Assembly (NCBI GenBank): GCA_050084985.1
Contig: JBITNC010000001.1
Location: 86,118,001 to 86,182,000, forward strand
Direction: 5' to 3'
Source of the DNA: Nageia nagi
Lineage: Eukaryota > Plantae > Pinophyta
DNA: 64,000 nt
In this document: piece after piece, positions 1,465-29,100 of the stretch
Layout of the letters: each line of letters begins with the position of its first letter
Position numbering within the stretch: the first letter of the stretch is position 1
The notes under the pieces: model-generated
The model's database searches: none
What the model saw: only the letters and a program-made list of their open reading frames with translations
Told to the model about the DNA's origin: nothing
Position numbers and translations under genes: made by a program

Positions 1465-1961
1465 TGTTGGAATGTACAATGCATTATTGTAAAGGTTATG
1501 TAATAATCTTCTATGTAAGTTCACTAATACTTAAGGGTATCATTTGATACCTTAAGTATTTAAGTGAATATGATAATGTAACTTGTCCTACACTCCATGT
1601 CATGAACATGCCCCTTGGGTAAAAGGATGTGCATGTCATGCTTTTGTACATTGGATAAAAGGGTGATCCAAAGAGGGATTTTGGCTTATAAATAGAAGGC
1701 TCTTTCTTTGTGATCACACACCAATTGTGGAGTAAAGTTATGATATAGGATAGTGTTTAGGAGAAAAGTGTAGGAAGATTGTAAGAGTTCATATTTGTTA
1801 AGAAGAGAGATCTAGTTAGTGGATGTACTCCTAGTTGAAGGAACCACTTACATCTTGTGTTATCTTTGTAAGATTGCTTTGTGAGTTGTTAGATGTGCAT
1901 TGTGAGCTTTCATGTGATCTTGGTTGTTTATGATTGCTTTTGTTATAGTTCAATCCCTTCA
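1465..1961 (+). repeat. copia 3' LTR (~497 bp)
   Basis: TG...CA ends, degenerate PPT (aagggttag) before it, internal TATAAATA near 1687, similarity to LTRs at 37049 and 44874. Confidence 0.85.
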
Positions 1962-4240
1962 GATAAGAGTATCAATTTGCTGAAATTCCTCATTTTCATC
2001 TTCGGAATCTTCTCCTTCGCAGGGATGATTTGAACTCAAACTAGCCATCATTGCAACCATGTCGAAGCGGGGTTCCATAGGTTGTTTTCCGTAGGGAACC
2101 ATCTCTTCGTCTTCAATGATTTCGACATCATGCTCTACTTGTCTTCTTTTTCTCCTTTGTTCTTCATTTTCTCCATCCTGTTGATTTTCATCATCTCCCC
2201 CTGAAGATGATGTCAGTGTCCTCGCTCTTGAAGTACCTTTCTGAGCTGATGTTGTTGTGGTCCTTCGAGATGGTGACGTTTGCGATGCCTATTTCCGAGG
2301 AGCAGATTTTGGGGTATCTGTTCCTGCTGCTTGCTGTACAATCATATCGACTGAGGGATTGCCTTCACTAAGGATCTCTACTGAATGATCGATGTTGACC
2401 CACTCAAAGGCAGCATCTTGGTTTATCTTCATGTCAGTGTTGATGACTGCAGCAAAATCCATCTCTTCATGGTCTCTGATGAGTCACTTAATCCATATTT
2501 ATCGAAACTGGATGATGATGTGCAGGGGTTTTGATTCAAGCGCATACCACTCCAATTCAAACCTTGTGGGAGATTTATCTTTTTTTGCAAGTGTTTGAAT
2601 GGTTGAGAGATCAGGCCTGCTCTTCTAAGGTCCAAGATTTCATTCCTCGTACTCGTGACAGTTGTTTCAATGGTTTGTCCGGGGATGGTATTGGTAGCGT
2701 ACTGCCCATTCTGTCCTTGAGCTAGGGTTACTAAAGGGGATATTATGGGAATAACATACTCATGGCTCGGGGGTACAGTGACTCGTGCATTGGCTCTTAA
2801 CCTAGCAACTTGTTCGACTTCATGTTGTTTTTGTTCTTTTTTCAGCTCCTTATGAATCCGTTGAACCTGTAGGGCGTTTTGAATGTTCCTATACCTCTTA
2901 ATGCTACCAAGGGACTGGTGTGGGTATGATGAGCTCCAAGTCTTCTAGAAGAATGCATCAATCACTCCATCGGGATCATAGTGATCCGCAGCTACTTCTA
3001 TCAAGAATTCATACAATGCTAGTTCTTGTTTGATCATTTCAATCTGTCGCCAATTGGTGCATTCATAATTCCCGATGATAATAGGTAATTGGTAAGTAGT
3101 CACCGCCTTCTTTACCCATACCTTGTCATGTACGTTTAGCAAGTGTCTTGAAAATTCCATAAGGATGATACGATCACTTGCATAACGGGGTTGCCTGTAA
3201 GGGGCTTCTTTGGAGCCATAGACCCTTAGGTAGATGAACTCTATGTCTTCCGCAAAGAAGTCTGCATGTCCCTTGATAGCAGTAGCAGCCTCTTTGGATA
3301 TTCTGAATACGTTAGCTCTACCTAGGATCTCTTCGTAGATCTTGCCTTCAAAACCATTGGTCATCATCGTCCAGTTTCCAGTATTCCATTTATTATTAGC
3401 ATAGAACCGGGGTAATTTTCCCACACTGGATGTGTAGGGTTTTACAGATACTAGGTATTGACAATTGAAGTTACCCTCTCCCTACGATGGAGGAGTAGGA
3501 AAACTAGGTAGGATAAAATTTCCTGCTCTTCTGAATGTCTTTCAGTTGCTGAGCCAAGGAATCACTAATTACTCTGCTCCACTAACACCTTTACCGCTAC
3601 TGATTAGCTCTATAAACCCCGCGAATTCCGGCTGGAATTTGGTGTCATCTTTCTGTCCAGTCACTTTGGAAAGCATGGATATTAGTCTAGAGACTACTAG
3701 ATAGAACTCTCCTCTGTTTGGCATTGCTAAGCTCTCCCTGTGAGATGCTTGCAGTCATCGGCCAACCAATCTCTGATAAAATCAGCTAGAGGTTTCAGAC
3801 CCTTGTAGAACTTCAAGGAGTCTTGCATGTTGTATGATAAGCCTTCGCCCTTCCAAGAGAATGCCCTTTCTATTCCTTCCTCAAAGAAGTCCATGATTAC
3901 CTTGTTTCTTCTATCGAGGAGTCTCCGCTCTAGGATGTTGCAATGCTTTCCTAGCTCATAACACAACTCACGGAAGGGGATGGCAAATGGCACCATAGAA
4001 GCTGATAGTAGTAAGGAAGTTTTCAAGGTGTCCTTCACTATCGAAGCTGGATCCAATGTATGTATTTTCATTAGAGTTTAATTGGATCGAGGGAGTTATA
4101 ATCTGTATCTCCGATCTCACTCGGTCAATGATTCTTGCAGTGGGCATCACGGGCTCTGACGTATGTTCAAGAGTGATGGGATTGTCCATCGTGAGCCTTT
4201 TCTGCTTCCTATCTTTGATATTCTGAGCAACTAACCCCAT
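1962..4240 (-). pseudogene. TE accessory gene, 'domain A' + acidic linker (unknown function), frameshifted, cut by copia insertion
   Basis: Fragments 3968-4240, 3727-4071 and 2945-3424 align with 18244-19855, e.g. VPFAIPFRELCYELGKH vs IPFTAPFPELCMEVGHH; YLRVYGSKEAPYRQPRY vs YIRIHGSAV*PYQLPRF; DHYDPD in both. Minus-strand TATAAATA at 5101-5108. Confidence 0.8.
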
Positions 4241-5499
4241 CCTGTTCCTGTCTAAGAGAACAACACAGTGTTAGAGGATTCTTGGGAAGCTTGTGGCACT
4301 TTCTAGGCAAGCTAAGAGAATTTTTCAAAAAATTGGGATTTTGGGCATTTTTTTCTCTAAGTGTGCCATCATCGAAAAATATCAAGGTTTGCAATTTTCA
4401 AATCCTTTTGGGTGAGTTTAAGGTGACACAAAGGTAGCTACCTCAAAGGGGAATGCCTTGGCAAAAATCTCAGATGATTGGGGAATTTTCAAGTTTTTCT
4501 CCAAAAACCTTGACTTTTTCAACAGGAAAAAATGGTGAAATTTGGCAAAATTGGCAAATGATGCCGGAATCAAGTTCTAACACCTTAGATGGATGGGGAA
4601 TGAATGGGGAAGGTGTTTCAGACTTTGAAACAGCCAAAATGGACTTCAAAAACAATTTTTGGAATTTTTTGAAATTTTTTGGGATTTTTTTTTAATTTTT
4701 TTTAAAAAATGAGGATTTTGAGGACTCAGATCTTGGATCTTATGAATTTTTTGTGTTTTTTAGCTGAAAATAAAAGTTGATCACATGGATAAAGGGTATC
4801 CAAAAAAATGATCAAAATTGAAATCTGAAAAAAAAAATCAAGTGTTTGAAGGTTTGAAAAATGGGTTTTTATGAAAAAATCCTCAAAACTTGAAAAAAAT
4901 GGAGTTCATGTGGATGGAGGATGCTTCGATTTCGAAATTTAATGGAGTTTGGGTAAATGGCCAAGATACTAAGTGTTTGAAAAAATCCTCCAAGGCTGGA
5001 AAAATGGCTTCTTTTCTCACTTGGCTCTTAAATTCTCAAAAATTTGGGTGGCATAAGGGTGAAAAAAAGAGAGGTGAGCAAAATGGAGGGGGTATGGTCG
5101 TATTTATAGACCTTGGGGTGTTAAAAGTGCCACATGTCACTTCCACATCAACCTTAGAGCTCAACACTTGCACTTTGGACTATTTTCTTTCAAACCCAAC
5201 ATTGGAAATCATGAGAAAACTTGGAAAAAGGTCAAAACCTGCACCTAGATGGGGAGGGAGCAGATTTGGTGCAATGGGGGAGGTCTTGGAAGCAAAGATG
5301 ATGGCCTTGGAATGCTCTACAACCTCCATGCTTCAGATTTGGATTTTGAATTTTGATATTTTTGAAGGAAAATCCAAATTTTTTGAATTTTCTCAGCCCT
5401 TAGATCCTTTTGGATGCAAAAAGGTGGTTTTTAGGAGTTTGTGTGAGCCAAATTGCACAAATGATAGGTCAAAATGGTGTAGAATCACACCACCTACCT

Positions 5500-6850
5500 C
5501 ATAAAAGTGAAGAATTGCAATTTTGGGCACTTTTAGGAACCAAGGAGGCTAGGCACACATTTTACGATGTTTAGGCAAGTTTTGAAAAATGAAAAAATGG
5601 GGGATAACTTGCACAACCAGCACCTACCTTTTAGCGGAGGGGAAATTAGTTTTTGAGCAAATTTGCAAGAGGTAAAGATGCTTGCATTTGGATTTTGAAC
5701 CCTACCTTTCTTTACAATTTTGTTTTTGGGATTTTTGAAATTTCTTGGAAAATTTTGGAGTTCTCTCATTGGCTGATTCAAATTTTGGGATTTTGAGGGA
5801 GTAGATCAACTTTTTCCAAAAACTTAAAACATGAAAGAGATGTAAAATTGGATTCCCATGCTCCTAGGATCAAAAATTTTGATTTTTGAGCAAAAATGAG
5901 GGCTTGCAAGCTAGGCGCAGGTTTTAGGGGCTTTGGCATGTTTGTTGGAAATTTAGAAAATGGGGGAAACAAGCCAAAACTGCCACCTAGCTTTTTCAGG
6001 GGGTAAACTTGATTTTTTTGCAACATTGCAAGAGGCAATGTTGATCTCCTTTGAATTTTGCATCCTACCTCACTTTCCTTTTTTGATTTGAACAAGTTTG
6101 GAAAATTTTGAGAAAATTTGGAGCCCTCTCATTGGTCAATCGAAATTTGATGATTTGAGGAGGTAGATTTCAATTTTTTAGGAAAGTCAAATCATCAAAC
6201 TTGAGAGGAATCCCATCCTATACTCCTTGAAGGTCAAAATTTTCAATTTTTTTCAAATTTGGGGCACAAGAAGGGTAGGCACAGATTTTAGGATGTTTGG
6301 GGTGTTTTGAAGATTTTGAAAAATGAGGGAAAACACCCAAAACCAACGCCTAGCTCTAGGAGGGTCAAAATTTGCTAAATTTCAAAAATTCCAAGAGGAA
6401 AGGTGCCTAATTTTTTATTTGCCACCCTACCTCACTCTTAAATTTTCATTTTGACACTTTTGGGAATTTTGGAAATCTTGGAGCATTCTCATTGGCTTCC
6501 CTTTTGCTCATTTTCCTATTTTTTCTCATTTTCGATGGTGCAAAATTCGTTGAAGTCATGAACTTGAAAGACCAATTTGATGTAGAATCGCAATCCCCAT
6601 GCTTCTGAGCTCAACAATTGCCATTTCAGATCAATTTGGGCCTCCCAAAAGGTAGGTGCAAGTTTTGAGGGGAATAGGCTATTTTTCAAAATTTACTGAG
6701 GCAAAACTTGCAAAACTCCACCCTAACTTTTCAAGGGTCAAAAATTGAGTTTTTTCAAAATTTTCAAGAGTAGAGTGACCTTAATTTGTCATTTGGCACC
6801 ATACCTCTCTCTTGGATTTTCATTCCGAGCACTTTGGAAAAAATTCAATT
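5500..6850. repeat. ~365-bp degenerate tandem repeat (~4 units) with inverted TAGGCGCAG...CCAAAAC..GCCTAG half-sites and CCAAT boxes
   Basis: (g/c)TAGG(C/T)RCA at ~5549, 5911, 6275, 6652; CTCATTGG at ~5765, 6128, 6488; phased A/T tracts throughout 4300-7500. Confidence 0.75.
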
Positions 6851-7545
6851 TTCAGGCTCAAACCGAAGCTTTTTGAAGGCCAAAATGCTCATTTCTTGAT
6901 CCTGGCGCACAAGGGCGCTCAAACTTGTTTTCCTCATTCATCCCAGGCTATATTGTACATTCCCGACCTTCACCGTCTTTTACGAACCCAAATGGTGCAT
7001 TTCCGACCATTTTCGGCATTTCTAGGCTCTAAGTATGAATTTTGACCATTTTCAGCTTTTTCGAACATTTCCAAGCTTGAACGGTGAAAAAATGGTCATT
7101 TTCGGCATTTTTAGTATTTCGAGCTCAAAGTCTATATTTTTGGCCTTTCCAGACTCAAGATATGCAAAAATGCTCATTTCCAGCCTTTTCGAGCATTTCC
7201 GAGCACTTTGAGCTCAAACTTGCATTTTTGGTCATTTTTGAGCTCTCCGAGCTTAAATCGTGCAAAAATGCACACTTTCAGCATAGTGACCATTTTCGGG
7301 CTCAAAATTGACCAAAACGTGCTTTTCCATGCTATTGACCATTTTCTGGCTCCCCGGGCTCAAAATTGACAAAACGCACTTTTTGGCTGTAGATGCCCTT
7401 TTCGGGTTCAATTTGTGGAAAAAAGCGCATTTTTGTCATCTTGATTGTATCCACTAGCCTTGGGCTCAAATTCGACGAAAAAAGCATCTTTTGTCGCCTT
7501 AGCACCTTTGTTGCTCAACTTTGCCAAAACGAAACTTTTTCTGCC

Positions 7546-9745
7546 ATGATGGCCATTCGCTCAAAACTCCACTATCTGGTTGCTGTCACAATCCAAAACT
7601 CCGTCCTTTGAGATGCTGCTCAAGACCGAGCCCCGACTTGGCCACTGGTTGAGATGAATTGTTTCCATGACTTCGGGGCATGTTCGTGCATTGTTTGATC
7701 AATTCGTCATTCTAGGTATCCATATCGGTTGTAAGTTGATCATGCCGAGGCAATATTGCTCATTGCCGTTTAAAAAATTGGGTCCCCAAAATGCTGCATC
7801 TTTGGGTGTGTTGTGTGGGCACAACAGCTTCCTGCAAGAAAAAGGCAAGAGGCCTCGAGGGAGCCCATCCTGGGTCCTAGCAAACACAATGTAATAGAGG
7901 CTGATCTCAAAGACGCTGGATATCATGCTCTCCCCTCGGATGTGCTGGACGATGTGGTAAATGCAGCTTGTGGTAGTGGTTCATCCACTAAGGCAATCCC
8001 TTCCAGACCTATCCATTCTCCTAGTCCCAGAAAGAAAGTTCCCCCTCTACAACCAAGTTCTAGCTCTAGCTTTGAACGTTCCTCTTCTTTCGAAGAAGAA
8101 ACTGATGAAGATCTTGATCGTACGATGGAAGATTCTAGAGAAGAATCAAAAAGCCGTAGTAAGAGAAGAAGAAGAAGAAGATGTTGACAATGCTGCCAAT
8201 ATGCCTAAGCAAGAGGATGTGACTATAGGTGCTTCATCACATGATGAAACTGAAACTGAAACCATCCCAGATGATGAGATAGTGGACGTTGGTACCTATG
8301 ATGATGACGTCCAGATAATTGGGAAGAAGTGCGCTAGAGAGGTGGTTGCATCTAAGTCCTCTCCTGCTGAACATAGGAAGAAGTCCTCTTCTTCGCATAA
8401 ATTCTCTACCAAAAGGAGTCATGAGAGATCTCCCTAGCTCTGGAACAAAGGCTTATCTATAGGCGATAATGGAGGAGATGAAGAAGACGAAGGAGAGACT
8501 GATGAACAGAAAAAGAAGAGGCAGCAAGAGGAGCATCAAGGCAAGGAAATGGCTATAGTTCAGACCACTCTAGTGAAGGAGGTCAAGAAAATCGATAAAG
8601 GAAGATTGTTGGTTCAAAGGTTTCCCCCTCGGCCAGCAACCGAACATCCAAATCTTGACCTGGATGCTTGCCTTAGAGCCCTCAGCATGAGTACAACTCA
8701 TGATGAAGACATAGACCAGAACCTGCGTTCTGAAGATGAGGAGGAAGAACTTTCAAATGGGGAGAAGATTCGAAAGGTGGACACTTTTTGTCTCCACCTC
8801 TCAAAAAGAGATCTCCATTAGCCATTGCTACTCGAAGGAGAAACACCCTCAGAGACCGAGGTTTATGTCATCGAGACATTCAAGATGCTTATGAAACTGG
8901 GGTTGATAGCCAGAAAACACATTGTTACTCAGAATGTTGCATTCATGGAGCAGAAAGGCTATGAAGCCAAAAAAGAGGTGAAGAGATTGACGAAGAAACT
9001 CACGGCTAGTAAGAAGATTATCAAGGAGTTCCAGAAAATTAGCACCACCCGTTTAAACCTAAGACTTCTTTCTATGAAGGATGGGAACTGATAAAGGAGA
9101 AGCTTAGGAATGAAGTGGAGGCCATCAAGAGATTGTCTTCATAGATTTACAAACTCCTTGCTGAAGGTGTTGAAATCAAGGATCTCAAGACATAGATTTT
9201 AGCACACCTTAGCACGTTGGATAGTTATCTTCTCAATGTTTCCCATCTGCAGCACATTTACACCAACAACCCTGAAAAGTTTGTTTATTGCCATGAGTTC
9301 ACCTATCATCATGATTGGTTGAACCACGCACTTGAGAAGTGCAATGAAGTCCTGAAAGTCAGAATCCCTTTGAGAAAGGAGATTGAGGAATAGATGAGTA
9401 TCTTTATCAACTCAAGTTCCAAGGGGAGGATAACAATGTTAGTAAGAAGGAGGCAGTATTGGCAGAGGCCCAAAATCTAATCCAAGAGCATCTTGAAATT
9501 GATGATCTCAACTTGCTGAAGTAGGGCATCTCGTCATCCATGAGAGGCGGATGGTCATTTGGAGACACCAGATGCAGGCTACGTCCAAGAAAATTGAAGG
9601 ATATTTCCGGCAAAATGGCAGTATTATTGATATCATCTCTAGGGGCATGCGGAAGACTATGGCATTCTTGGAGAAGAACATTGAGTCCTACGGTCTCACC
9701 AGCGAGGAGTGGAACTCCACTCGTATCGAATCAGATCTGGCCTAG
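7546..9745 (+). pseudogene. TE accessory gene, Ser/acidic region + helical/coiled-coil 'domain B' (unknown function), with stops and frameshifts
   Basis: LGLIARKHIVTQN ~ IGLVGRKHAIISN (20.7 kb); LSTLDS...H...NNPEKFVYCHE ~ LRVLDS...H...RRPEDVKFCEE; WRHQM...KIEGYFRQN...GMRKTMAFLE ~ WEKDM...KVERYMAKN...GLKLTAKFLD (21.4 kb). Start approximate. Confidence 0.75.
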
Positions 9746-9906
9746 GTTTCATTCACCTGTAAACTTCATCTGTGGTATCTTTTCTTTGTTTAATGCATAC
9801 TTAATGTTGGTTGTTATCTCAAACTTTATTCCATCCAATTTGATCGGTGTAGGGATGAGGTTTTGCTTCTGTCAGGTGAAATCTATCATATTCATTTATG
9901 GCTTTG

Positions 9907-9940
9907 ACCGATGCAGGGATGAGGTTTTGCTCCCATCGGT
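9907..9940 (+). other. Conserved hairpin motif (stem ACCGATG/CATCGGT around GGATGAGGTTTTGCTCC); decayed second copy at ~9845-9875
   Basis: Same core at 21611-21627 enclosed by a different perfect stem. Confidence 0.7.
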
Positions 9941-11649
9941 GTAGATGTCAGACCTTTCAAACTATTTATTGCATATCTGATTTACTGTTGCATAGATTAG
10001 ATATAGATTAGATGCATTTTGAAGGTGGCATTTATATTTTGTCAACTTTAAGTGCCACTTGCATAGTTTTTTTTTGCAATCTGATTTTGTATTGATGTGT
10101 GTTGTGTGTTTGTGCACCATATCAGATTTGATGCCTTTAGGGTAGCACTTCTAGTGGCCTATTTATACCCCACTCAAGCCATTTAGAAAGGGATTTTGGC
10201 ACTAGGGATTTTGCATCAAATTCTAACATGAAGAATTTTGATATGAGGAATTTATGCATAGGATCTTAACACAATTTTGCATGGGACTTCTGCACTTAAT
10301 GAAAGCATCATATATTGGAGTTCTTGCATCTTTGAGATTCTGACTATTGGGTTTATATATATAATCATTTTGAACCTTTGCATATTATAATACTCACATT
10401 CCATTGCATAGAGGTTTGCTGCATAAGGGGTTCTATGCATGTATCGTTGTTGAAAATTATTATGAATGAGTTTATCTAGAGGAATAAAATCATAAAGTTA
10501 TATTGTGAGGAATATCATTTGTGGGATTGTGCATATTTGAATGGTTCTTTCTTTGAGCTGCTTATTGATTATTCATGTGAAAGAGTTTGATCCTTCTTTG
10601 CATAGTTTGCACGCAAGTGGATATATTATGAGGCTTAAAGCTTGTCTTTATATCATTCGGTTAGGTTATTGCACTCACGCCCTCACTTCACTTTTACCCC
10701 CTCCATCGAGTCTTCCACAGACCCTAAAACTTCTTGCTCTCGTCTAGTAGTGATTTGAGCATATTTGCTATTTGTTGCCCGGCTTGATAGTGAATGCATC
10801 AACCTTAATGAATCTGAGGATGACCTGATGAAACACTATATCCCTAGCGATGTCTTCATAAGTCTTTTCCTTTCCTCGCATTCCCTTGCATTTATCCTTG
10901 TGTTTGTCTCTGCATTTGTGATCTTTCTTCGCTTTCGTTCACATTTGCAGTCTTTCCTCATTTGTGGAAAGGATTTCCGGCATGTATTTCCCTTGTATAC
11001 AATTAACAACATGTATCTTTAACTGCTGAGCCATCAAGACCATATTCCATGTGAGCGCTTGGGGTAACCAGTCTTTTCAGGTGGAAACAAGTAACATTGT
11101 TTCCTCCAAGTCTTGTGCATGTTTTGGGCGAGGAAAGAAAAACATACCAACAGCTATAACATGTCAATCCAACCTACATAGTTTGAAATCATGCAATCTA
11201 TGTAATTTATTTTGATAAAAGCTATTGCAGATTTAGTGTTCGGTATATAGTAGAAATCCCCATGATTTGGGAACCAATTTGCTTTCTAAGGTACAAAACA
11301 ACAAATTCTTTAAGATTTTTTTGTTAGAAAACATGCAAATAATCCAAAATCCAAATTTTAGCTAAGTTTAATCTATTTTGAAAAACTTGCTGCATTCTGA
11401 GAGTTTGTCAACATGACCAGCCCATATGGTGCATTGCATTGAAATTTTTTAACAAGTTTACATTTTTTGGAAGCTCTTAAGATCCTAAGGGTTGCTTCTT
11501 TCAATTTTCAGATTGGAAGCTTTAATCAAACTGAAATCTTGAAGGAAGAAGGTAAAAACAATTCTGTAGGTATAAGAATTTATTACAAATGTAATGGCAT
11601 GGAACATTTGTGATTTGAAATCATAGCTTGCAAGAAGAAAATGCACAAG

Positions 11650-15949: not shown

Positions 15950-16640
15950 ATAACATGGAAGTGTCACTCTAATGATTCCAAGGATTCCCAATTTTCCAAC
16001 AAGTTCCAACGTTGATTTTTTCTATATACACATATTATTAGAAATTAAGGTCAAGGTGTCTCTTAAGGGGTTCTCCCTCCAAATGGACATCTTTCTTTGA
16101 AGAAGTCCTAAATTGGCCAATCAATCAATCACCATATTACCCTCCCTATATACATATTCTACCTTTAAGGTCTCCAACTTTGACAGTTTTATAAGAGCTT
16201 CGTGAATCATAGGTTTAATGGTCAAACAAGAGCTTGGGATCACTTCATTGCATTGACTATATTGAAAGAATCTCCCTCAATTATAACTTTTTAAAAATTT
16301 AGAAGACAAAAAGATAAATACGTTGGTAAAGGGCCCTAGTTTTTGCAAAGTGACTAGATTGAATTCCCAACATTTCAGCAAAGGATAGGAGGGGTTCCCC
16401 TTTATCATTACTAATAACCCCTCTCACCCCTATGTCTCTAGTGTTTCCTTTCAAAGCCATGTCAAAGTTCAATTTCACCCAACCTTGGGGAGGGTCCATC
16501 AAACTAGAAATCTATTCACGTTCACCTCCACAATCGAGACATCTTTTTGGAGCATTCCCCACCAATATTTGGACACTTTCTTCTTAGCATCAAGCTTCAA
16601 CATTCAATGAAAAAAGACTCAATGCTTTAGCCAATCCCTT
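15950..16640 (-). mobile_element. LINE (L1) 3' fragment with RNase H-like (RVT_3) domain
   Basis: PPQGWVKLNFD.A.KGN...G..GVI.ND.G...SFA..LG..S...A..RAL is the plant L1 RNase H signature. Confidence 0.8.
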
Positions 16641-16940
16641 CTGTTGTGACTAAAATACAACATGCCCCAAAATCGTACGATTTTGGGGACCCTCAAGCAC
16701 ACCTTTGTATATACTTCATTTTGTCGTCATCTTCACTCCCCATGTTGCATCACCGAGACCCTGATTCATGGACTACTCATAGTTCATAGCCTCTCCCTTC
16801 ATTAGAGTTAGCCATGATAAAATAGAAATTGCAAATTCCTTGGAATGGCTAAGTCCGGGAAGAGTAAAAGTCAAATCTAGGTGAATTAGGAAGTCTAAGA
16901 TGAGCTGGAAGCTGAGCAAGTCAAACTAGGCATTCCCGAG

Positions 16941-17914
16941 GGCTAGCACATGCTTCAAAAAGATAGAATCTTGTCTTTTTGAACCATGTGATTGGGCCAA
17001 GGGGCCGTCCAGGCGAGAGGGAAGGTTCGAAGATGAAGTCTAGGCACTTACAAGCCCAGTGCATGCCTCCAGGAGACAAAACTTTGACTATCCTGAGCAT
17101 GCGCCAAAGACAGGAAGTATTCTGGACCAAAAGAAGGTGCAATAATCCTAAGGCAAAGACACCAGAAGGCTGGCGCATGCTTCAAAAAGACAAAAAACCA
17201 TGCAATTTGGCTAGGAGGACAAGTTGAGCAAGTTTGGATGCCTAAAAAAGAATCTAAGTCACCCAGGAGGCTGGCACATGCCTCAAAAAGACAAAATCTT
17301 GTCTTTTTGAACCATGCGCCAAGCTTGGAAGGGCTTTTAGTTCGACAGAAAGTGAAAATTTGACAAGGCATGGACCTGGGGAACTCAAAACCAATTCAAG
17401 CATATATAGGGGGCTAGCGCATGACCTCAAAAGACAAATTCTTGACTTTTTGAGGCATGTGCCAAGCCCAGGAAGCCTCCAGGATTTGAGAAGAGGCTTC
17501 CTGAAGCATGAAAATTCGGCTAAGGCATGAGCATTTGAAGATCAAAATTCGCAAAATAGGCCAACAGGAGGCTGGCGCATGTTTCAAAAAGACACAATCT
17601 TGCCTTTTTGAACCATGCAACCAAGCTGGAGGGGTAGGCAAGCTTGGCGCATGCCTCAAAAAGTCACAATCTTGACTTTTGAAAGCATGCACCAAGCCTA
17701 CAAGTTGCCCAATTTGAAACAAAGCATCAAATTTGATAAATTCAGCCGACTGGAAGACCAAAAATCGAGAGAAATCAGGTTAATGGGTGAGTTGGAAGAT
17801 CAAAGCAAGCAAGCACATGACCAGGAGACCCAATGTTAGGAGCATACTCCCTTCCAGGGCTGGTGCATGGCTTAAAAAGTCACCTTTCTATCTTTTTTGT
17901 CCATGCGCCAAGCT
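16941..17914. repeat. Array of 8 imperfect ~56-bp palindromes (GGCTGGCGCATGCYTCAAAAAGACA-AAATCT-TGTCTTTTTGARSCATGCGCCAAGC) with non-repetitive spacers
   Basis: Units start at ~16941, 17054, 17168 (internally deleted), 17269, 17412, 17570, 17641, 17858. Confidence 0.9.
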
Positions 17915-18065
17915 TGGATGACCTTCTGGACCCCAACATCTAGACATAAGAGGCTTGGCATGAGTTTCTGAACCAGCACACATCTTGAGGTCAGATAGAT
18001 AGAGGGCTATGATCAAGTTTGATAGAAACCCTAGCCGACTAGGGCAAGGTGGGAGACAAATTGGC

Positions 18066-18073
18066 TATAAATA
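18066..18073 (+). promoter_or_regulatory. TATA box for the LTR-internal ORF
   Basis: GGCTATAAATAC ~160 bp upstream of the coding region and just downstream of the palindrome array. Confidence 0.6.
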
Positions 18074-18224
18074 CAAGCTTTGGGACCTCATTTTCCCAAA
18101 TTCAAAACTTGCTCCACTTCTACCCTTGCGCCAAAATAGCAAGAAATTGCAGATTTTTGCGTCCAAACATCTTCATTAGTGGATCTTAGGGCTTGCACAA
18201 GCATTTGGGAGGTTAGCTACCATC

Positions 18225-21200
18225 ATGTGAGGGTTATTCTCACTTGGAAACCCAGGTAGCATCCTTGGTGAGCCACATCGCAATTGAAAATATCATGACT
18301 CCCTCCGAGGGCAATTCGGCTCTTGACTTTGCTAGGGACCTCGAGCGGTTGAAACAGGATTGCGTCATCTCCATTCTTGAGAGACAACAAGCCCTTCCCC
18401 AAGGGGCCAGGTTCTCGAGGAACGATTTTGCAACCATCGGAGATACTGACTAGCAAAACATAGACCCCATGCAGATGAGGGAGAGCATTCATGGGCTTCC
18501 TTCCACAGACCTAAAGCAGGACATTGTCTTCTTCTTCAAGCTCTCCACCTGCACCTTCATCCCGTTCACAGCCCCATTCCCTGAGTTGTGCATGGAAGTC
18601 GGTCACCACTAGCAGAAGGGAGAGAGAATCCTTCGATACATCAAGGGAGACATCATTATGGACTTTCGCCCCAAAGCTATTAAAGCAGCATTTCAATGGA
18701 CTTTCGAGGGTGACTATGAATATAGTGAAGCTAGGTCACTCGCATGCTACCAAGAGACTCCCAGGGCATCCATCACTATTAAGAGTTGGATATTCGAAGA
18801 ACATCACAGGTTGAAGGGAAATGCACTCATCAATGCTCCTCGCTCTAACTTCTAATTGACAATCGAGTTAATGATTCTCCTGTTATCTAGAGTTTTCGGG
18901 AAGGAAGATGCTTCAAAATTCAAGGAGGAGTTCTTTGGGTTCATTCTTGAGATTGCTAGAGGTAGAAGGATCCGATGGAGCAAGGTGTTGAGCAACTCAA
19001 TAGCTGATCAATTGTCATCCATTGATAAAACTCCTAAATTCTACCTCAATTCATACTTGGTATACATGTTGGTCCATGGCAGATACTGGGTTACAGCATA
19101 GGGTGAGACGGCTTGGATAGAAAGAGGAACTTACTCCATTTGGAAGTGCTATCCCAAGTGGAAGTTAGAGAGAAGGTGGGACAGTTTCACAATGAAAAAC
19201 GATGGATGGGAATACAAGATATATAAGGAACTTAAGGGAGAGATCATAGTGGCATGGATCTCCAATTCCACCCAAGATGCTTTGAAAAAGCATGGCAATT
19301 TCTTCCTCCATCACCAACACTTCTCTTATATTCGTATACATGGATCAGCCGTATAGCCCTATCAATTGCCAAGGTTCGTGAATAATAAGATTCTGCTAAT
19401 GGAGATGATGAGGCAATTGGCCTTTTTTACACGAACAGGTGTGGCAAAAGAAATCGGCTACATCAAATTTGCCGATCGTTGTGGGAGAATACCAATGTAA
19501 GTTCTGGACGGATGTGGATGCTATGAAAGAAGAGTTGGCTAGATTCAACTTCAAGAAGATGCCTTCCATAGACCACTATGATCCGGACCACAGGTTGCAC
19601 TCATTCTTCATGAAGGAAAGGAAAAAACCCTATGAACATAAGCCACTTGCAAAAGAGGAACCTTTCTGGAATATCAGCAATGAGGTAGAGATCAAGAGGA
19701 TAAGGGAAAGGGTACACAAGAATGCAAGTGATGAGCAATATCGTGTGGAAGCCACAATTAGCAAGAGACTCTCATGGAACAAAGGAAGAAGAATTCAAGA
19801 GTCTACTTCTAGGGTCACCCAGTCTTCTCCAATACACAAGACTCCTATTGGGTAGTATGCAACCATGCGTGGCAAGAACCCAGTTGAACGAGTTATACGA
19901 CAAGTGCAGGCCACCATAGATGAGCATGATGCAAGGGAATTAGAGCAAGTAGCCATAGATAAGGTAGTAAGGTGTGTGTGAAATAGACATCAAGATCCTT
20001 CTCCACCACCTAGACCACCTAGAGCCACCTTAGCTGCAACGTCACTTGTTGTACCATCATCTAGGTCAGTAGCCTCCAGTCCCTCTTACAAGCCCGATGG
20101 AAACCAAAAGGAAGGAGAGATTGGAGTATCGGAGGATGAACAGGAGCAAAATATGGTCCAGGATGAGGAGATCCTCGATGCGCAACGAAAAGATGTGTCT
20201 GTAGAGATTTTAAAGGAGACTCGTAAGCATACAACATCAGGGCCATCTACAAAGAGAAGCAGAGAACCAATTTCAGAGACAGTACAGAGGACTCAATTGA
20301 AGAGGACTCCACAGTCCCAGGCTACAGGGGCTTCACATGATCAACATGATGAATAGGAAGAGGAGAGACCCTCAAAGAGAATAAAAAGGAACATTGTTGC
20401 CAATCAAGAGGCCGTTGTGGACACTTATCAGCCATCACCCATGGATGAGTGGGGTGTCAACATGGAGGAGTGCCTTGATGTGTTCAATATGGACATCGGA
20501 AAAGAATTTGGAGCAGGGGAAAAGGATGATCAAGTAAGAGAAAGCTCCACCCGTCCAGGAAAATCCCAGACGTATGTCCACTTGGCCGATAATGCTATAC
20601 ACATTAAGACTATTATAGCCAACAAGGAGAACCCACAATGTCCAGAAGACCTCAGGCAGATTAACCAAATCATTAATACAGGTCCGATCGGTTTGGTTGG
20701 TCGGAAACATGCAATCATCTCCAATGCTGAGGCATCACCAAAGATGGTATGATGAAAGATAAGGAGATTAAGGGCCTCAAGAAGGAGTTATCCACACAGA
20801 AGAAGTGACAAAAGAATTAGAGTCGGCTAAGGTACCCACCGAAGAACTTTGAAAGATCAAGCCACTTAAGGAGGGTATGATCACGGTGAAACAAAAGCAC
20901 ATAGATGAGGTCTTGGCAGTAGTTCAACGATTTATTGGAGCACTGGAGAGGGTAGCACTTGAGGAGCAGAAGCTCAAAGATATCATTGTAGAGAGAACCA
21001 ATTTTCTCAGAGTCTTGGATTCTAGGCGGCACATGATCATGCACTTTGAGATGACATAGAATCGCAGGCCAGAAGACGTGAAGTTCTGCGAAGAATATTG
21101 GTTCTATTTGGGTGTGGTCAATCAAATGGCCACTCGATTCCAAGAGGTGCAAAAGGATATGCAAAAGCTCAATGACCAAACACTTTCCTTGAGCAAATGG

Positions 21201-21520
21201 AGTTCCAGGTAAAGTTCCTTGATGATAATGCGGGCATCCGAGATAGAGACCTGTTGGTGGCAAAAGTAAGGCACTTCCTTCACAGCTTGATTATGACTAA
21301 AGACATCAACACGTTCCAAATTGGCAATCACTTGGAGCATTTGCTTAAAGCTCATGCATGGGAGAAGGACATGTTGAGGATAGTAGACAAGGTGGAGCGC
21401 TACATGGCCAAGAACAAGCCCAGGTTATCAGAGATACTGCATGGATTGAAGCTCACAGCCAAATTCCTAGACGACGACTTTGAGGGGCGTGTAGAGGCGT
21501 TGGGCCCACCAAACACCTAG
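18225..21520 (+). pseudogene. ~1,100-codon TE accessory gene (domain A - low-complexity linker - domain B), several stops and frameshifts
   Basis: Fragments 18244-18453, 18658-18855, 18856-19101, 19439-19855, 20153-20356, 20417-20752, 20877-21059 and 21197-21520 form one collinear reading. N-half homologous to 1962-4240, C-half to 7546-9745. Confidence 0.8.
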
Positions 21521-21597
21521 TTACAATACTTGTTATATTTTATTTTATTTTATTTCATAGTTATGATTGGAAACTTGAATTTATTTGTTAATAATTC

Positions 21598-21638
21598 CCA
21601 AGTTTGTGATGGATGAGGATTTGCTCCCACAAACTTGG
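21598..21638 (+). other. Conserved hairpin motif (perfect 11-bp stem CCAAGTTTGTG/CACAAACTTGG around GGATGAGGATTTGCTCC)
   Basis: 78 nt after the ORF stop; core shared with 9907-9940. Confidence 0.75.
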
Positions 21639-22379
21639 AAGATATCTGGTGACGCCATGTGGTGTATTTTGATTGGACCATATTTTATTTTCTCGTAAGT
21701 TACAATTAGGGTTAGGGAAACATTTAGAGTTGGTCTAAAACTATATATAGCCCATTTTAGGTCATTTGTAGGGGATTAGACATTTTGTGAAAAATTGGAC
21801 TACTTACACTATTCTTCCAAACTTGCAAGTTTCTTTTTTTTTCGCAATTGTGATATAAATCTCAAGTAATTGAAGTGAGCATGTTCTTATTTGAGACTAT
21901 GGATGTCATCGTATGTTATTTCTCTATGCTATCTTGAATGTTTGGTTCATTTTGTAAATCTTCTAAAAGGTGGAAAAAAGAGTGCTTGTAGATCCTACGA
22001 AACATTCTAAGTGGTGTGTAGTTGTAACGTTCCGTAGTTTGCACTTTGGATTAGTGTCTTCCGAGAGAACTCGCATATGTCGTTTAACCTAGGAACTTCA
22101 TTCCATCATTGAGTCTTACTCCATCCTATCCTACCTTTCCACCGCTTCAACTTCAAGCTCCCCTTGTTGAGGTATTCGTGTTGTTGCCTCACAAGTCGGA
22201 TCGGGAATGCGTGGAACCTAGAACAAACCCATGCAAGTCAAGTCTCAGAAATTCACACTAATCGGTAGGAACATTTCCCTAGAGCCCCATTCGTATATCA
22301 CCGTCTCTTCACAAACCCCTTTTCTTTATTTTTCCATTTTTTGCACGGCTTTCACAACAAACTCCTTTTATTTTTTATT

Positions 22380-24200
22380 TTTCTTTGAGAAACAACCTCA
22401 ATGAATTAGAGAGACCCTTTGAGTCCTTGAGTAACAAATTTCATTTGAGTTGGTAAAAGCTTAAAATATCTCTACCAAACCATCTGAGTCAGCCCATGCA
22501 CCCTTCACTTTCTAACCTTTGAGGTAATCAATCCTCATTGGAGTCTTTCCACTAAGCCCTGCAATACTACTTGCCAACTTGTAGGGATAGGAAAGAAAAA
22601 GACACCAACACCTTCCTCCCCAAGTCTTATTGGCATAATGATTTTGGTTGGAAATAGATAAACCATGGAGAAATGTTCAAATTTCCAAGAATTTCTTTCG
22701 CCTTCAAATCTTATTTCTCTTCTCTTTGGCAATTTGTACTTGCCAAAGTTAAGAACAAATTACAATAGTCATTTCAAAACCATGATCATTGGCAAGCCAA
22801 TTCCAAGTGTGTTCAAAGGTGCTCGCTAAAATCAATGTTTATTATTCCTCTTGCTAGGCTTCCTATCAGAAGTTAAAATGATCCTTAGAGAATTTTTTAT
22901 GGGCTTCCTCCTAGCAAGGGAAAGGTTTTCATATTGTCGCATCAAAATTGTGTTGTATTCCATATGAATTTGGAGAACTTGGGCTTTTGGACATCCATCT
23001 CCAAAAGCTTGTCCTTTGTGCAAAATGGGTTAGCTAGGCCCCAGAAGGCAACAAAGATTGGAAAGTTTTGATTCAACATTGTATTGGTTTAGGCATTCCA
23101 TATGGTCAACAAACATAGAAGGAACTTCTCCATCATTCCATCCTTATTCACAAGGTGCATGTCAAAATTTAAGCCATCTTTGTGGCCAAAAGCATTTGGA
23201 AAGCTTGGGAATACTGTGAAATGGGAATGAATTTAATATTGAGATTTCAATCAACCAACAATCCTTTCAATGGTTTCCTATAATCACTCACCAAGATAAA
23301 CCCCTTGTGAAAGTCCAATGGATTGATGTTTTAAAATTCTTTTGTAGAGGGGTTTGGGTCATTTTAGACCAATTTTCTAGAGAAACAAGGAATCGAATTT
23401 CTTGGTATGAAGCCAAAGCCAATTTCAAACTGGCTAACTATGATATGGAAACCTTCCAAGTGGTTGTGGACTCTATCCCTACACATATGATTCATAAAAT
23501 AGGGAATAGAATCTCCCAACCTTGGTGTAGATATTGGAAATGGTTCCCTAATAACCCATTTTGTAGGTACAACCCTAGCAAAGGTTATAAGTGGCTTTCA
23601 CCTCACAATTTGTCACCAAAACTTGGCAACATGGGTTTCAAACTATCTAATCTGCTATCATGGAATCCAACCTTGCTCATTTTTCTTGGTGTATTCTCTA
23701 TAAAGGTCTTCCTCTTGGCAACCAAGCTTGCTCATTTAGGGGTTGCCAACCCTCGATGCCTATTTTATGGTCAACGTGGAAACATTAAGCAACTTTTTGT
23801 GTTTTGTCTAAAGGTCAAGCTGCATTGAAAAGGATCCATGATTTTGTCAAGCCCTTAAGGCTAGAGCATTTCTCTTGGCACATGATTCTTCTAGGTGACT
23901 AACACAATATGCCTCCGACGCACACCCAACCATGGCATACTTTTAAAGTGGAAATTTTTTACAAAAATTCAAATATTTCTTTCAAAACTTTTGTAGATAC
24001 CGTTTGTCTTTGACTACAAAAGCTAAAATTTGTTCCAATGTGCTTTGGCAATTCTAGGTACAAATGAATAAGGTGGCTTTGGAGGTAGCCCATCTACAAA
24101 CACTTATGAACCACTAGGTTAACACTCCATGCATGGTGGCCCATGTCCCATCAACCTCTCCTTAGCATAGAAGTTGGTCCTAAGGGTGCAAACGTCACTA
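22380..24200 (+). mobile_element. Decayed LINE ORF2 (RT C-terminus to zf-RVT)
   Basis: Frameshifted motifs: SLASQFQVCSKVL, LWA..GFH.VA..CC.P..G.LGL.D..Q..LCAKW, KSIWKAW, and decayed C..C...HLF..C (ANPRCLFY...KQLFVFC). Confidence 0.75.
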
Positions 24201-26050
24201 TAGCCAAACTTTTCAAATAAATCCCCAACATAGAGCTGGGGTCCAAACTCCTTTTCCACCTCATTCTTCTCAATACTATGACTAGGGAGCTAAGGGATGG
24301 CACAACAATGACAAGTTTCCCCACTTTAGTCTTTCCATTTCTCTAAGGAGGGGCAAAGAGGACAACCAAGTTGTAGAACAAGCTGACGAAGGTGCCAACT
24401 CAAGCTAGGAGACACCTCCAAACACTTAATATCCACAATAGTAAGGGCTGACAAGAGTGAAGAATTTTTTGTTTAGAATCCTCTTAGAAAGTGATGTTTG
24501 GATTAAGAGATATCATGACTCCCTATTAAGAGGCAACGATGTTGAAAGGGTCATCCCATGTTTGTAGCTATGAAATATTAGATAAATATGTTTTCTGCAA
24601 TGATGATGTGTCAATAAGTGGCAATCCATAGAAGATTTTAGGCTAGAGTTGGATAGGAAATTTATTCCTTTTGATGACAAATCTAGCAATTCTGCTGAAT
24701 CTTTGTAAAGATCCACAGGGAAAACATGTTCCTGTACATGGATGCTTGTTAATTTTGGAATTCGTTTTTGACAAAAGATTGGATGGAGTACCCTAGATCA
24801 ACCTCTGTTAATCAAGACAAAAAAATACTAAAAGATTATCATAAATCACATGTGAAGAGTTGAAGTTGGGAGAGGAAAGATCAGAAGTCTCATACATGAC
24901 TTTTAAGGGAATTTAGAAGTCCAAGTTTTCTAGTCTATAGAGCCTGACATCTCTTCTCAGAGATACATCAAAACAACTCTTAGAACTAATGAAATTTTTC
25001 TGATTCCACATATTGTCATTTCTGTGCATTGAATGGCTCAATGTTTCTGTATTACCATCTGTTTGTTCTTACATACGTTCATGTTTGTCAAGACACATAA
25101 GATTCAGCAATTTGATGTATTTATAATTTTATATTGCTTTGAAAATCTGAACCCTCAAATAATTTTATATCTTTAAAATGTCTTTTCAAACTCTTGCTTT
25201 TCTCCTATTGGACTTTATGATTAACCACATTTACTTGTAAGTGTTGAATTATGTTATGCCACCCTTTCCTTTATTCCATACAAACTATAGTGTTGTGTGT
25301 ATTTTATGGATAAAATTTCAAAGAACATCTTCCACAGTAAATTGAACATCTTGATAGGATATCCATAAAAACTTACCGGATGTCCAGTTTCAACTACCTT
25401 GGATGTCTCACTAGAAGTCTAAACTTGCCTCCCTAGGACACTCTAGTTGAAAACTGAAATACATCTGTATAAAACAACTTAATTCTCTGCACAGGATGGC
25501 TTAAAAGGATCTCCCAAATTCACCAATATTTGAAATTGCAAGTCCTTTGTATTTTACAGTTGTACACAAAGGTGTTTAGGAGTGGATGATCCATATCATA
25601 TATCCTGTTACTCTTCTTTGTGGTTTTCCTTTAACAATCTGATCAATAACTTTTAAATTGAGGTTTAGTAATATAGTTTATTGTTCTTTTGTCTGCAGAG
25701 TTCCATTTTGCAAAATCTAGTTATGAATACCTTCTCCCAAAGGTAAGATTCAACTTCAAGATTTTCCTAAGAGATACAACTGGAACATATGCACAAATAT
25801 CTCATATAACATAATTTTTCAACAAACAAAAACAAGCCAATTCAGTTAATACAATTACATTCAACATTAAGTATCGGCTAACCTAAAAGCACCTTTATAG
25901 CCTTCGCATATCATAATCATTATAATATCTAGTAGCAACTTCCTTGTGGACATTAGTCACAATTCATTCAGGATACCCAAAGGTACATACACTAATAATA
26001 TAATAATTACAATCTTCATTCTTATTGCACATAAAAAAGAGATATATTAC

Positions 26051-26164
26051 CGTGCAAGAACTTCCATACATGCAGTATCCTGCTGCAACCATGTTTTTTC
26101 CTGCTTGAAGTACAGAGTCTAAGCTTCCTTCCATACCATCTTTGAGCATGTATATTCCAAATAT
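26051..26164 (-). CDS. CYFBP: FBPase exon 6 (114 nt)
   Basis: [38 protein letters not shown] then GT donor. Confidence 0.95.
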
Positions 26165-29100
26165 CTACAAGAAATCAGAATATCTACATAAGCACCCCCT
26201 TTTTCATCTTTCTGGACACAACAAAGATAACACTAAATATTTTTCATAGTTGATTAATATGCCAAAAGACATCATTAAAACTCCGTTAGTTATAAAAACA
26301 ATAGAAGAAAATAGTGCATACAAATCATGTTTTTAAATGTGATATATTCAAGAGTGATAATGGCAAATGTATGATAAGATATCTATTTTTTTTAAGTATT
26401 CATACACATGAGAGACTATTAAACAACAGGATTTAATCAACTCATAGAGAGACTTGATAGTAGTTTTTACTGTTCCAATAGAAACTCCACAATCGATGTT
26501 GGAGGACCCATCAAGTGGATCAAAACATACACAATATCTGCACAAAGAAGAAATACAAAAAACTACATTAATATGTATGAAGTCAAGATTATATACATGA
26601 ATAAGTAAGATAACTAAATAAAGAAATGAACACAACCAAATATGTCAAGGAATACCTTCCTCTTTTTGATGGCTCCACAAAAAGTGCCTCCTCATCCTCC
26701 TCCGAAACAAGTATGTTCTGCAAGACATATAGCAATTAAATTATACAATTATGGTGAAGGTAATGATGCATAGGGACCATTAAATGATGGATCCGCAAAG
26801 CATATTAGAGACATTCCAATTGCTCAATAGAATAAACTCATTATGAAGATTTTGCATAAAATGAACATACCGTACGTCCACTGCTTACTAGAGCCTTGAT
26901 GAATACTTCATTTGAGAGAACATCTAGTTTCTTTTGCTCCTCTCCCTGTTTTTAGATACAAGCACCAAAATCAATCAACTACTAATTCAGTAGTTTATTA
27001 AATGTGTTATCTGAAACAAAACTTCTTGAAACAACGAGGTATGAGTCCATTGTTGGAAGATAGCGGTCAAAATTTCAGAATGCATATGGAAATTCTTTAC
27101 TCACAATCAATAGAAGATTCATATTACTAGAAGTAATGCATTCTAAGACATGCTCCAGAATGAAATCAAATTGCATGAAAAAAAAACTAACAAAAGAACC
27201 TGCACATTTGTATCCCCTGAAAGGCCAATAAGCTTAGCAAGTCCTGCCTGCACAAATAACATTCACACGAAGATATAATAAGTTAAATTTTTGAGTTTTA
27301 TATGAATTTCAATAACCAACAAAGTATGGACTATATGAGATACAGTTTGCACACTATATAGCATCAAATACCAAATATCTTTTAATTAAATTCAGTTTAA
27401 TAATTTAAATCATAAATGGCATAACTAATTGTTGTCTCAATGGTTTGTATACAATGCACAAATGCCTATTTTGTATCTTCTATTGAAAAATCTGTCAAAT
27501 AATGTTAACAATCCAGTGATGATTTTTTTTTTCTTGTTTAGTACTCCCAGCATTTTGGAATTTTGGGCAGGAAAACTCAGCTGCAGTGAAGAAATTAGGA
27601 TTTGTGCAATAGATTAGTGTCTTTTTTGTTATCATTTTCCCTAATGTTCTTATAGTTTGTGCACTTGTTTTATCAAACTCACTCGACCTTAGTCACAGTG
27701 CTTTAGCAAAATCGGGTGCGTAGATGGACTTTAGGCGATAACAACAATAAATGAAAAACTAAGCAACAAAGCACGATTAACACTATCTCACATATAAAAA
27801 AAAATTCTAATAGATCAATGGCCCTGATTGAAAATCCAAAACTTGTTCTACTTGGATGCTATTGAGTGTTGACTTATTGAGCACCACAAGACTCAATCAC
27901 TTTTGGATTAAAGCAGCTAGAGCCATGCATCATTCAAATGAAAGATCAATAAACTGAGGCACCAAAACAATAATGCCCAACTGAAGATAGCAAGCAAAAG
28001 AGGGATACACTCAATGAAGATGGATGCAAGAACATACTTCAAGCAATAACAATTGACAAAGAAAAACTATGATGGTTTGCCTTGAACAACACTGCTTCAT
28101 GTGACCTCACTTTGTTTCTAGTAAGAGATAACAAATTCAGTTTCTAAATACATCAAATAACCAATATGAAGAATCGAAAACAAATCTAAGTTGTACAGCT
28201 ACAGATTAAATTTGGTATCAGAGTAGTTTTTCCTGATTCTTGGGAGCTTTGAGAACATGTATGACAATAAACCACCAAGCAGAGAATTGGGAGAAGGTTG
28301 GTTATAGAAAACAGACCCTACAATTGGCTCTACATGCTGGATAGCTTGATTTGATTCTGTTGAATACTATGAAGGGTGCCATGAATCTATACCAGGTTCT
28401 CTGCCTAGTTGATCCAATCTGGTTAATCTCTGATGACATGAATAAAATTGTAAGCACTCCAATTCCACTTATGAGAAAATGAATTACCCATTTGTCACAG
28501 TATTAGTAGCACATGTCTGCAACTGAGATGCCTAGGTCTCACAAATTTATCACCAATCTATTCGGTTCTTTTGAGACTACATATCATAAAAGGCTTCTAC
28601 TTTACCACATGAAAAGTGTGCAAATTGTCTCTTGATATTAGATGCCCCCTTTCTAATGTTGTAGTTTTAGTTCACAACAACAAAGAATCCCTCAAGAACC
28701 CCGTCTTTATCTCTCTTCCATGGGAAGTTGATCACTTCCTGGAGATACTAACATTGTTGCACTTATAATTGAAGGAAGAAGTGGACTATATGGAGCGTAT
28801 GATTAGCTTTCTCAATGCGCCCTGTCTGACACTGTGGATTCTATAAAGGTATATATGAATGATTTTTCATATCTCTAATGGCTTTGATTCTCAAACACAA
28901 GGTGCCCATTTTTTGGCAAATTTATTCTAAACATAGGCCATATATTTTTACAAAGTAGATCAACTTATATTTATATATAGGCTTTTTAAATCAAGCACAA
29001 ATTTTACAACAGCCTAAAACTAATCATAAAGGACACCCTGTCTAATCCACAATGTAGTCTCAAACGAAGATTGCTTCTATGTTGCCCATGAATCACTAAA

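Follow-up and report, generated by a model that had tools for sequence, protein, structure and literature searches.

A probable solo LTR of about 6 kb in Nageia nagi contains a decayed gene with a predicted VANC-like domain

The question raised by this locus is whether a long terminal repeat (LTR) of a plant retrotransposon can carry a gene of its own. The locus lies in a 64,000-nucleotide stretch of the Nageia nagi genome (GenBank assembly GCA_050084985.1, contig JBITNC010000001.1, positions 86,118,001 to 86,182,000 of the forward strand), here called the window and numbered from its first base, and consists of a repeated unit that a preliminary description had presented as a 5.7-kb solo LTR with a gene inside it, extending from 16642 to 22359. 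Our analysis indicates that the unit is very probably an LTR, and that it contains a decayed open reading frame (ORF) that was formerly under purifying selection, preceded by an array of dyads of fixed geometry. The fuller reading, on which we are evenly divided, is that a Tat-type Ty3/gypsy retrotransposon of gymnosperms left the unit behind as its solo LTR, and that the gene in U3 would encode a predicted VANC-like DNA-binding protein that binds the upstream dyads and likely counters silencing.

The unit starts with TGTTGTGA at 16642, where the preliminary description had placed its 5' boundary and where both the depth limit and the target duplication now place it, and ends with ...AAAGACACCAACA at 22610, so that it measures 5,969 bp between the termini TGTTG...CAACA. 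The five bases that follow (CCTTC, 22611-22615) are identical to the five that precede it (16637-16641), a 5-bp target-site duplication (TSD) situated exactly at the limit of repeat depth; we infer that the chance of such a match at a site already fixed by the depth drop is near 1 in 1,000. In the contigs of all four public runs, summed depth ranges from tens to thousands over the whole unit against 0-6 in most flank bins, and it falls from 40-84 at 22591-22611 to 0-6.5 in the next bin. The unit is high-copy, the depth being a measure of abundance and not a copy number. The right end first proposed, at 22359, was rejected because the bases flanking the unit so delimited (CCTTC on the left, AACTC on the right) form no duplication and because contigs continue beyond it: TCACAACA at 22352-22359 is internal to the unit, several contigs bridge 22359 and no depth drop occurs there in any of the four runs. 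That boundary was off by 251 bp, and the length of 5.7 kb is revised with it.

Five further loci (L001 to L005) came from a metagenome scan of 531 candidate stretches. L001 and L002 have the same 5' terminus, array, first TATA-like box and ORF as the window unit, and L003 and L004 have the same 3' terminus, followed by unrelated DNA. The 5' end was the same in all four homologous ends and so was the 3' end, with differing flanks and with one 3' end decayed to ..CCAATA; the expectation that copies would share their termini was thus borne out, as was that of a 5-bp TSD around a solo copy, which is found at the corrected end, and among the copies seen none placed the ORF outside the LTR. The related copies also share one order of parts, namely dyad array, TATA-like box, ORF of about 1,075 codons, hairpin, second TATA-like box and tail. 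A C stands directly ahead of TGTTGTG in four of four copies (5' flanks at 16642 and 7826 of the window, at L001 8413 and at L002 2849), reflecting either a target preference or an ambiguity between a 4-bp and a 5-bp TSD, as TatII elements are listed with 5 or 4 bp. On the minus strand, 16642-16675 reads GGGGCA and then TGTTG, resembling a reversed polypurine tract (PPT) plus LTR start; a Retand-like element may, speculatively, have supplied the U3 cassette in the form of its 3' internal region, inverted.

An LTR is the most likely identity of the unit because one distant relative, L005, runs from a homologous 3' end into a site resembling a primer-binding site (PBS), plus a weak gag match. L005 has 35% protein identity and is heavily decayed; its 3' end is followed by TAAATTGGTTCTAGAAGGAGGG, with the PBS-like site TGGTTCTAGAAGGAGGG five bases past the end and a Retrotrans_gag match about 500 bases beyond that site (90 of 97 profile positions, E 0.00096, 19.8 bits). 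The L005 sequence ends 1.9 kb after the LTR, and no pol was recovered. The window unit itself appears to lack PBS and PPT, as the preliminary description had stated: none of the PBS-like motifs tried occurs in it, and behind the ORF the window shows no purine tract plus TG. A pair of short LTRs, one at either end of the unit, was considered and rejected, as no second copy of the 5' end exists within the unit (best blastn E 0.16 in its 3' part). L005 indicates that the 3' end is an LTR end; if so, the unit as a whole is most simply read as a single LTR. A 5-bp duplication together with TG..CA ends is the signature of an LTR integrase (PMC11963269; this and the other papers cited are used for the parts of their text that were available). 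The lineage is possibly TatII, and fixing it would need the reverse transcriptase (RT) and aRH. For TatII, a gymnosperm lineage, REXdb gives a TSD of 5 or 4 bp, a tRNA-Asp or -Asn PBS and element sizes that reach 18,138 bp; of 27 elements, 23% have forward extra ORFs on the 5' side of the polyprotein and 26% on its 3' side, and the PBS of Athila and Retand is also Asn (PMC6317226). The equal 5' and 3' shares of ORFs and the size of 18 kb would match the expectation for an element with two 6-kb ORF-bearing LTRs, which we treat as a lead.

The ORF extends from an ATG at 18295 to a TAG at 21520 (3,226 nt, about 1,075 codons, where the preliminary description had about 1,100 and had already recognized its disruption). 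The window copy is dead, because it has ten in-frame stops and four frame changes relative to L004. The dN/dS comparison suggested in that description shows that the ORF was under purifying selection: against L001-L004, dS was computable in 11 of the 19 pair-segments, which gave a pairwise dN/dS of 0.04-0.18 and covered all four ORF parts, and the other eight had pS of 0.77-0.83 (saturated) against pN of 0.15-0.36. Behind the N-terminal domain, the middle of the protein is low-complexity and the C-terminal piece is coiled-coil-like by a crude heptad score; the same three-part layout is found in a distant, naturally open homologue of 1,010 residues (P0119). The protein family has 132 representatives at E<=0.001 among 1.84 billion proteins, and two of the ten proteins looked up were named homologues, from Taxus and Cryptomeria; no longer homologue of the N-terminal piece was found among 1,787 candidates. 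Pfam yielded no family for the four window ORF pieces and no family shared across 110 aligned proteins, and an identity with PF20167/Athila ORF-1 that had been guessed by eye was dropped for want of Pfam support. One Cryptomeria gene model (P0130), named as an ALG12-like mannosyltransferase isoform, has about 74 initial residues that belong to the family of the N-terminal domain, and represents either an exonised element or a misannotation.

Upstream of the ORF, the palindrome array reported earlier is upheld, with four stems above threshold against none in 40 of 40 shuffles. It comprises six full dyads and one half-site (eight palindrome copies by an initial count) at 16948-17906, each full dyad being exactly 42 bp, with GCATG-N4-AAAAG(A/T)CA, six central bases and the inverse. 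Arrays in L001, L002 and L003 contain 13, 10 and 2 half-sites, respectively, all upstream of the ORF; the motif was not found in L004 or L005, and the rest of the 64-kb window has seven scattered loose matches and no second dyad array. The more distant family at 1959-7826 of the window has a different array. Over 30 half-sites, the blocks GCATG and AAAAGACA are nearly invariant and the spacer is variable, and these blocks are kept across copies with saturated synonymous sites. For 15 dyads, one of them one base out of register, the arms of one palindrome agreed at 13.5 of 18 positions, against 13.6 with partners shuffled within the locus (p 0.61); shuffling across loci gave p 0.07. Selected RNA hairpins were not supported as an explanation, since the arms do not co-vary. 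The dyads suit a protein site better than an RNA stem because their blocks are invariant and the two arms of one dyad are no more alike than others, and we lean slightly towards the ORF protein as the factor that would bind them.

The two TATA boxes and the hairpin of the preliminary description were likewise recognized, and they recur in relatives. The first box is CTATAAATAC at 18065, with its counterparts about 1,420 nt (L001) and 1,330 nt (L002) from the 5' end, and the second is TATATATAG at 21742. Between the ORF and the second box, the hairpin at 21595-21640 has a conserved loop and two-sided changes in 3 of 19 pairs, as counted over three sequences only, and may be an RNA element; Rfam returned four matches on the unit, none of which came near its gathering score. 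In all four runs, 21514-21847 is covered several-fold more deeply than the rest of the ORF, and the hairpin and the second promoter seem common to more families.

The preliminary description gave no function for the ORF; the predicted fold of the N-terminal domain points to a VANC-like DNA-binding protein. AlphaFold models were obtained for a 488-residue homologue (pLDDT 81) and for the window's own domain (306 residues, X at stops, pLDDT 80), and for both of them the VANC21-DNA complex 9LNK was the sole chain with Z>=5 among 48,161. The homologue model matched it with Z 8.2 and an rmsd (root-mean-square deviation) of 4.5 over 239 aligned residues (next row 3.5), and the window-domain model with Z 6.9 and rmsd 4.9 over 230 (next row 2.1). 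The match spans most of the domain and stands alone; the two models are not fully independent, because most of their alignment rows are shared. The ESM Atlas gave DUF1985 as a lead (0.81). Foldseek searches of the PDB and of viral models gave no match at E<=0.001, a profile search of PDB sequences had a best E of 0.65, the DUF1985/DUF287 profile matched none of the four window pieces and that of PF10536 matched neither these pieces nor the 110 aligned proteins. DUF1985 of VANC has been described as structurally like the plant mobile domain (PMD; bioRxiv 10.1101/2024.09.27.615353; PMC13547354), and PMD-A is encoded by gypsy elements (PMC5418596). Judging from the models, a true kinship of the domain with the VANC/DUF1985/PMD fold is highly probable, and we count the domain among the remote relatives in that fold group without making it a VANC by membership.

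VANC proteins bind short motifs arrayed in their own elements in a family-specific manner, causing methylation loss (PMC5735166, PMC10398659), and their targets differ between VANDAL families (PMC5735166). By analogy, the following mechanism can be proposed. Integrase would have inserted a full element, of which recombination between the two LTRs left one. The first TATA box would drive an ORF transcript ending at the LTR's own 3' signal; the protein would oligomerise through its coiled-coil-like part and bind both half-sites of every dyad in its own family's U3; as for VANC, binding would lower repressive marks around the LTR, after which the second TATA box would drive the genomic RNA. Because gene and sites both lie in U3, each full element would have two copies of the gene, and solo LTRs would keep both gene and sites. 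What points to a function is a remote fold together with a suggestive layout, and anti-silencing as the effect of the protein seems to us quite possible while falling a little short of even. More tentatively, gymnosperm Tat-type elements may carry a full, sequence-specific anti-silencing module, a VANC-fold gene plus dyad array, in an LTR of 6-8 kb; the module would be doubled at each replication, solo LTRs could act in trans on the family, many protein-array pairs would exist and the VANC/PMD fold would have served transposons long before dicot VANDALs.

Several results weigh against this reading. The anatomy of the unit (its ends, duplication, abundance, order of parts, ORF selection and dyad geometry) is well supported, whereas its status as an LTR rests on one decayed junction. 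A PBS-like site and gag follow only one of the four homologous 3' ends, that of L005, whose gag score lies below the Pfam cut-off of 24.1 bits, whose gag piece had no homologue among 24 candidates and whose 5' end and array are not recognisable. The PBS-like site resembles that of tRNA-Asn, an identity that three checks did not confirm, among them a tRNA search with three pattern matches, none of them a tRNA. No PPT precedes any of the four 5' ends (the flank of the distant family being read three bases off), an absence to be expected if these copies are solo or 5' LTRs. Among the loci seen (longest 5.5-15.9 kb), neither a PPT-TG junction nor an LTR pair flanking gag-pol was seen; none of L001-L005 matched a pol-like stretch of the window; and viral contigs contained no LTR-PBS junction, no protein relative among 448 stretches and four end-motif matches that were unrelated. 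The gene-bearing solo LTR of the preliminary description gains support from the TSD, the shared termini, selection on the ORF and the L005 junction, but its right boundary was wrong. As for the protein, the VANC21 match is remote (5-10% identity, rmsd 4.5-4.9), a best Z of 7-8 is, according to the search tool, common for models without a Foldseek match, and none of the 110 aligned relatives matches DUF1985, DUF287 or PMD in Pfam. In addition, the VANC21 site is a 9-base non-palindromic motif (PMC5735166), whereas the candidate site here is a 42-bp dyad. The fold also leaves the direction of effect unfixed, because in host MAIN/MAIL1 this fold was initially linked to silencing (PMC5418596).

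The unit might be no LTR at all but a complete non-autonomous one-piece element, mobilised by an integrase or DDE transposase from elsewhere, like a VANDAL without its transposase; nine of the ten ends examined adjoin unrelated DNA, the terminus has small inverted repeats and the cargo is VANC-like, all of which would suit such an element. We nevertheless regard it as improbable, for the tenth end, that of L005, leads into a PBS-like site and gag, the tail has an LTR-like promoter and end motifs, and the termini and duplication are those of the LTR integrase (PMC11963269). It is very improbable that the unit is a deleted element in which a 5' LTR stub adjoins a 3' internal region, with array and extra ORF, and an ordinary 1.1-kb 3' LTR, so that the ORF would be internal. 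Arrays and extra ORFs are indeed typical of the region between pol and the 3' LTR in Retand and Athila, and the raised depth at 21514-21847 looks as if that part were shared more widely; but the 5' end has no counterpart in the 3' part, neither the window nor L005 shows a PPT-TG after the ORF, and the matches in L003 and L004 fall in the ORF end and the hairpin loop. Moreover, the order of 5' end, array and ORF recurs in L001 and L002, whose synonymous sites are saturated relative to the window, which argues against a single, one-off deletion.

A gene in a giant LTR could also have another role, such as regulating the two LTR promoters, tethering integration or acting on the element's RNA, with the dyads perhaps serving host factors. 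A function cannot be read from a shared fold, proteins of the PMD fold counter Polycomb in some cases and work in silencing in others, the functions of plant extra ORFs are described as unknown (PMC7264820) and palindromes also occur upstream of the TATA box in maize Sirevirus LTRs (PMC4728375). However, the only solved structural match is a DNA-bound transposon anti-silencing protein, and the pairing of the gene with a family-specific array repeats the VANC layout, so that we consider such a role unlikely, if not remote. Our preferred reading is a solo LTR with a VANC-like gene and its candidate binding sites, whose features are collected in Table 1.

Table 1. Features of the repeated unit and its flanks (window coordinates)
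Feature	Position	Strand	Basis
Left target-site duplication CCTTC	16637..16641	+	sequence
Whole unit, 5,969 bp, TGTTG...CAACA, likely solo LTR	16642..22610	+	depth limits, TSD, ends common to L001-L005
5' terminus with two small inverted repeats (TGTTGT..ACAACA; CCCCAAAATCG..CGATTTTGGGG)	16642..16688	+	kept in 4/4 5' ends
Array of 42-bp dyads, half-site GCATG-N4-AAAAG(A/T)CA, 6-bp centre, candidate binding sites	16948..17906	.	same motif in L001-L003
First TATA-like box CTATAAATAC, candidate ORF promoter	18065..18074	+	sequence; L001, L002
Broken ORF of ~1,075 codons: predicted VANC-like globular N-terminal domain, low-complexity middle, coiled-coil-like C-terminal part	18295..21520	+	
Part of N-terminal domain aligned to VANC21 residues 297-574	18427..19248	+	model residues 21-294, Z 6.9, rmsd 4.9, 230 residues
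Post-ORF hairpin, conserved loop, some two-sided changes	21595..21640	+	3 sequences
Second TATA-like box TATATATAG, candidate main LTR promoter	21742..21750	+	aligned in L003, L004; equal distance from 3' end in L005
R/U5-like tail ending GGAAAGAAAAAGACACCAACA	21751..22610	+	3' end motifs common to L003, L004, L005
Right target-site duplication CCTTC	22611..22615	+	sequence

Related sequences occur elsewhere in the window. On the minus strand, 1959-7826 is the 5' part of the more distant family, with the same double-hairpin 5' end at 7826. Its array has units of about 363 bp, a TATA-like box lies near 5100, its ORF is homologous to the unit's N-terminal domain (tblastn E 1e-32), and it is cut near 1959 by a copia-like LTR; with about 3.6 kb between the 5' end and the ORF, an LTR of around 8 kb may be expected. 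The 3' half of a third unit lies on the plus strand at 7827-11152 and again in L002 (1-2817), with an ORF end that is acidic and then coiled-coil-like, a TATA box near 10160 and a tail ending GGAAAGAAAAACATACCAACA. Its ORF is interrupted by the minus-strand family, no PBS follows its 3' end in either copy, and it is likened to the 16642-22610 unit by layout alone, no protein homology being established. A sequence similar to the first hairpin of the unit, TGTTGTGAACTAAAACTACAACA, is found on the minus strand at 28657-28679, with no other part of the element beside it. The insertion splits what by eye is the decayed end of a LINE-like ORF2 (about 16100-16641 and 22611-24000, minus strand), which is too decayed for an open frame across the empty site and gave no Pfam match in the flank frames tried. 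Also on the minus strand, about 25960-27260 contains fructose-1,6-bisphosphatase exons of an intron-split gene (Pfam FBPase), the motifs of its C-terminal half not being found within the window. RT, RNase H and integrase fragments of another gypsy-like element lie at 57819-60587.

Genes in LTRs are known from retroviruses, in the MMTV sag gene and the overlap of HIV nef. As with these, and with the 5S sequence in the LTRs of Cassandra, which is likewise functional cargo, whatever the present unit carries would be copied to both ends of an element and retained in solo LTRs. Compared with sag, its cargo is a gene of about 1,075 codons, about three times the size of sag, with a separate upstream TATA box and candidate sites. 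We know of no LTR-internal gene in Sirevirus, a copia lineage. The maize Sirevirus LTR does resemble the unit in having a palindrome-rich region upstream of a TATA box (PMC4728375), whereas the unit's dyads are conserved as two sequence blocks and not as paired arms.

Among plant Ty3/gypsy elements, extra ORFs, long LTRs and arrays are already known in Tat/Ogre/Athila, as are PMD-fold ORFs in gypsy elements. Tat/Ogre/Retand/Athila elements are like the unit in their very long LTRs (to about 5 kb) and repeat arrays, TatII is like it in the 5/4 TSD and in forward extra ORFs on both sides (PMC6317226), and gene23 of Grande, an accessory ORF with its own promoter, is comparable to the unit's ORF and first TATA candidate. 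The unit differs in lacking a Pfam match to their extra ORFs (PMD PF10536, Transposase_28 PF04195, Athila ORF-1 PF03078) and in position: reviews place plant extra ORFs in the internal region (PMC7264820, PMC11963269), whereas this ORF lies inside a TSD-flanked, LTR-like unit. Literature searches for retrotransposon proteins resembling VANC and for ORFs located within plant LTRs found no such description in titles and the starts of abstracts, subscription papers and bioRxiv supplements being outside their scope. Sequence-specific anti-silencing is established for VANDAL DNA transposons, and what extra ORFs do in plant LTR retrotransposons is described as an open question (PMC7264820), one that a binding assay could test here, given the unit's named domain, its defined candidate site of 42 bp and the many divergent protein-array pairs. 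If our reading is true, it would help to explain the continued activity of retrotransposons in giant gymnosperm genomes, make a solo LTR more than a promoter, namely a gene-bearing cassette, and touch on the proposed origin of VANC in dicots from host MAIN (PMC13547354). For annotation, gene-containing LTRs of 6 kb are easily miscalled as genes or internal regions.

Another close comparison is with VANC21 of VANDAL21 (PDB 9LNK). VANDAL is a dicot Mutator-like DNA transposon with a transposase, whereas the unit has TG..CA ends, a 5-bp TSD and one long ORF, and no sequence similarity was detected between its protein and VANC21. Nevertheless, both are transposon-encoded accessory genes with, as far as the models can tell, a similar N-terminal fold; a coiled-coil part is predicted in VANC21 (PMC13547354) as in the ORF of the unit; and both are accompanied in their own element by repeated short non-coding motifs that differ from family to family.

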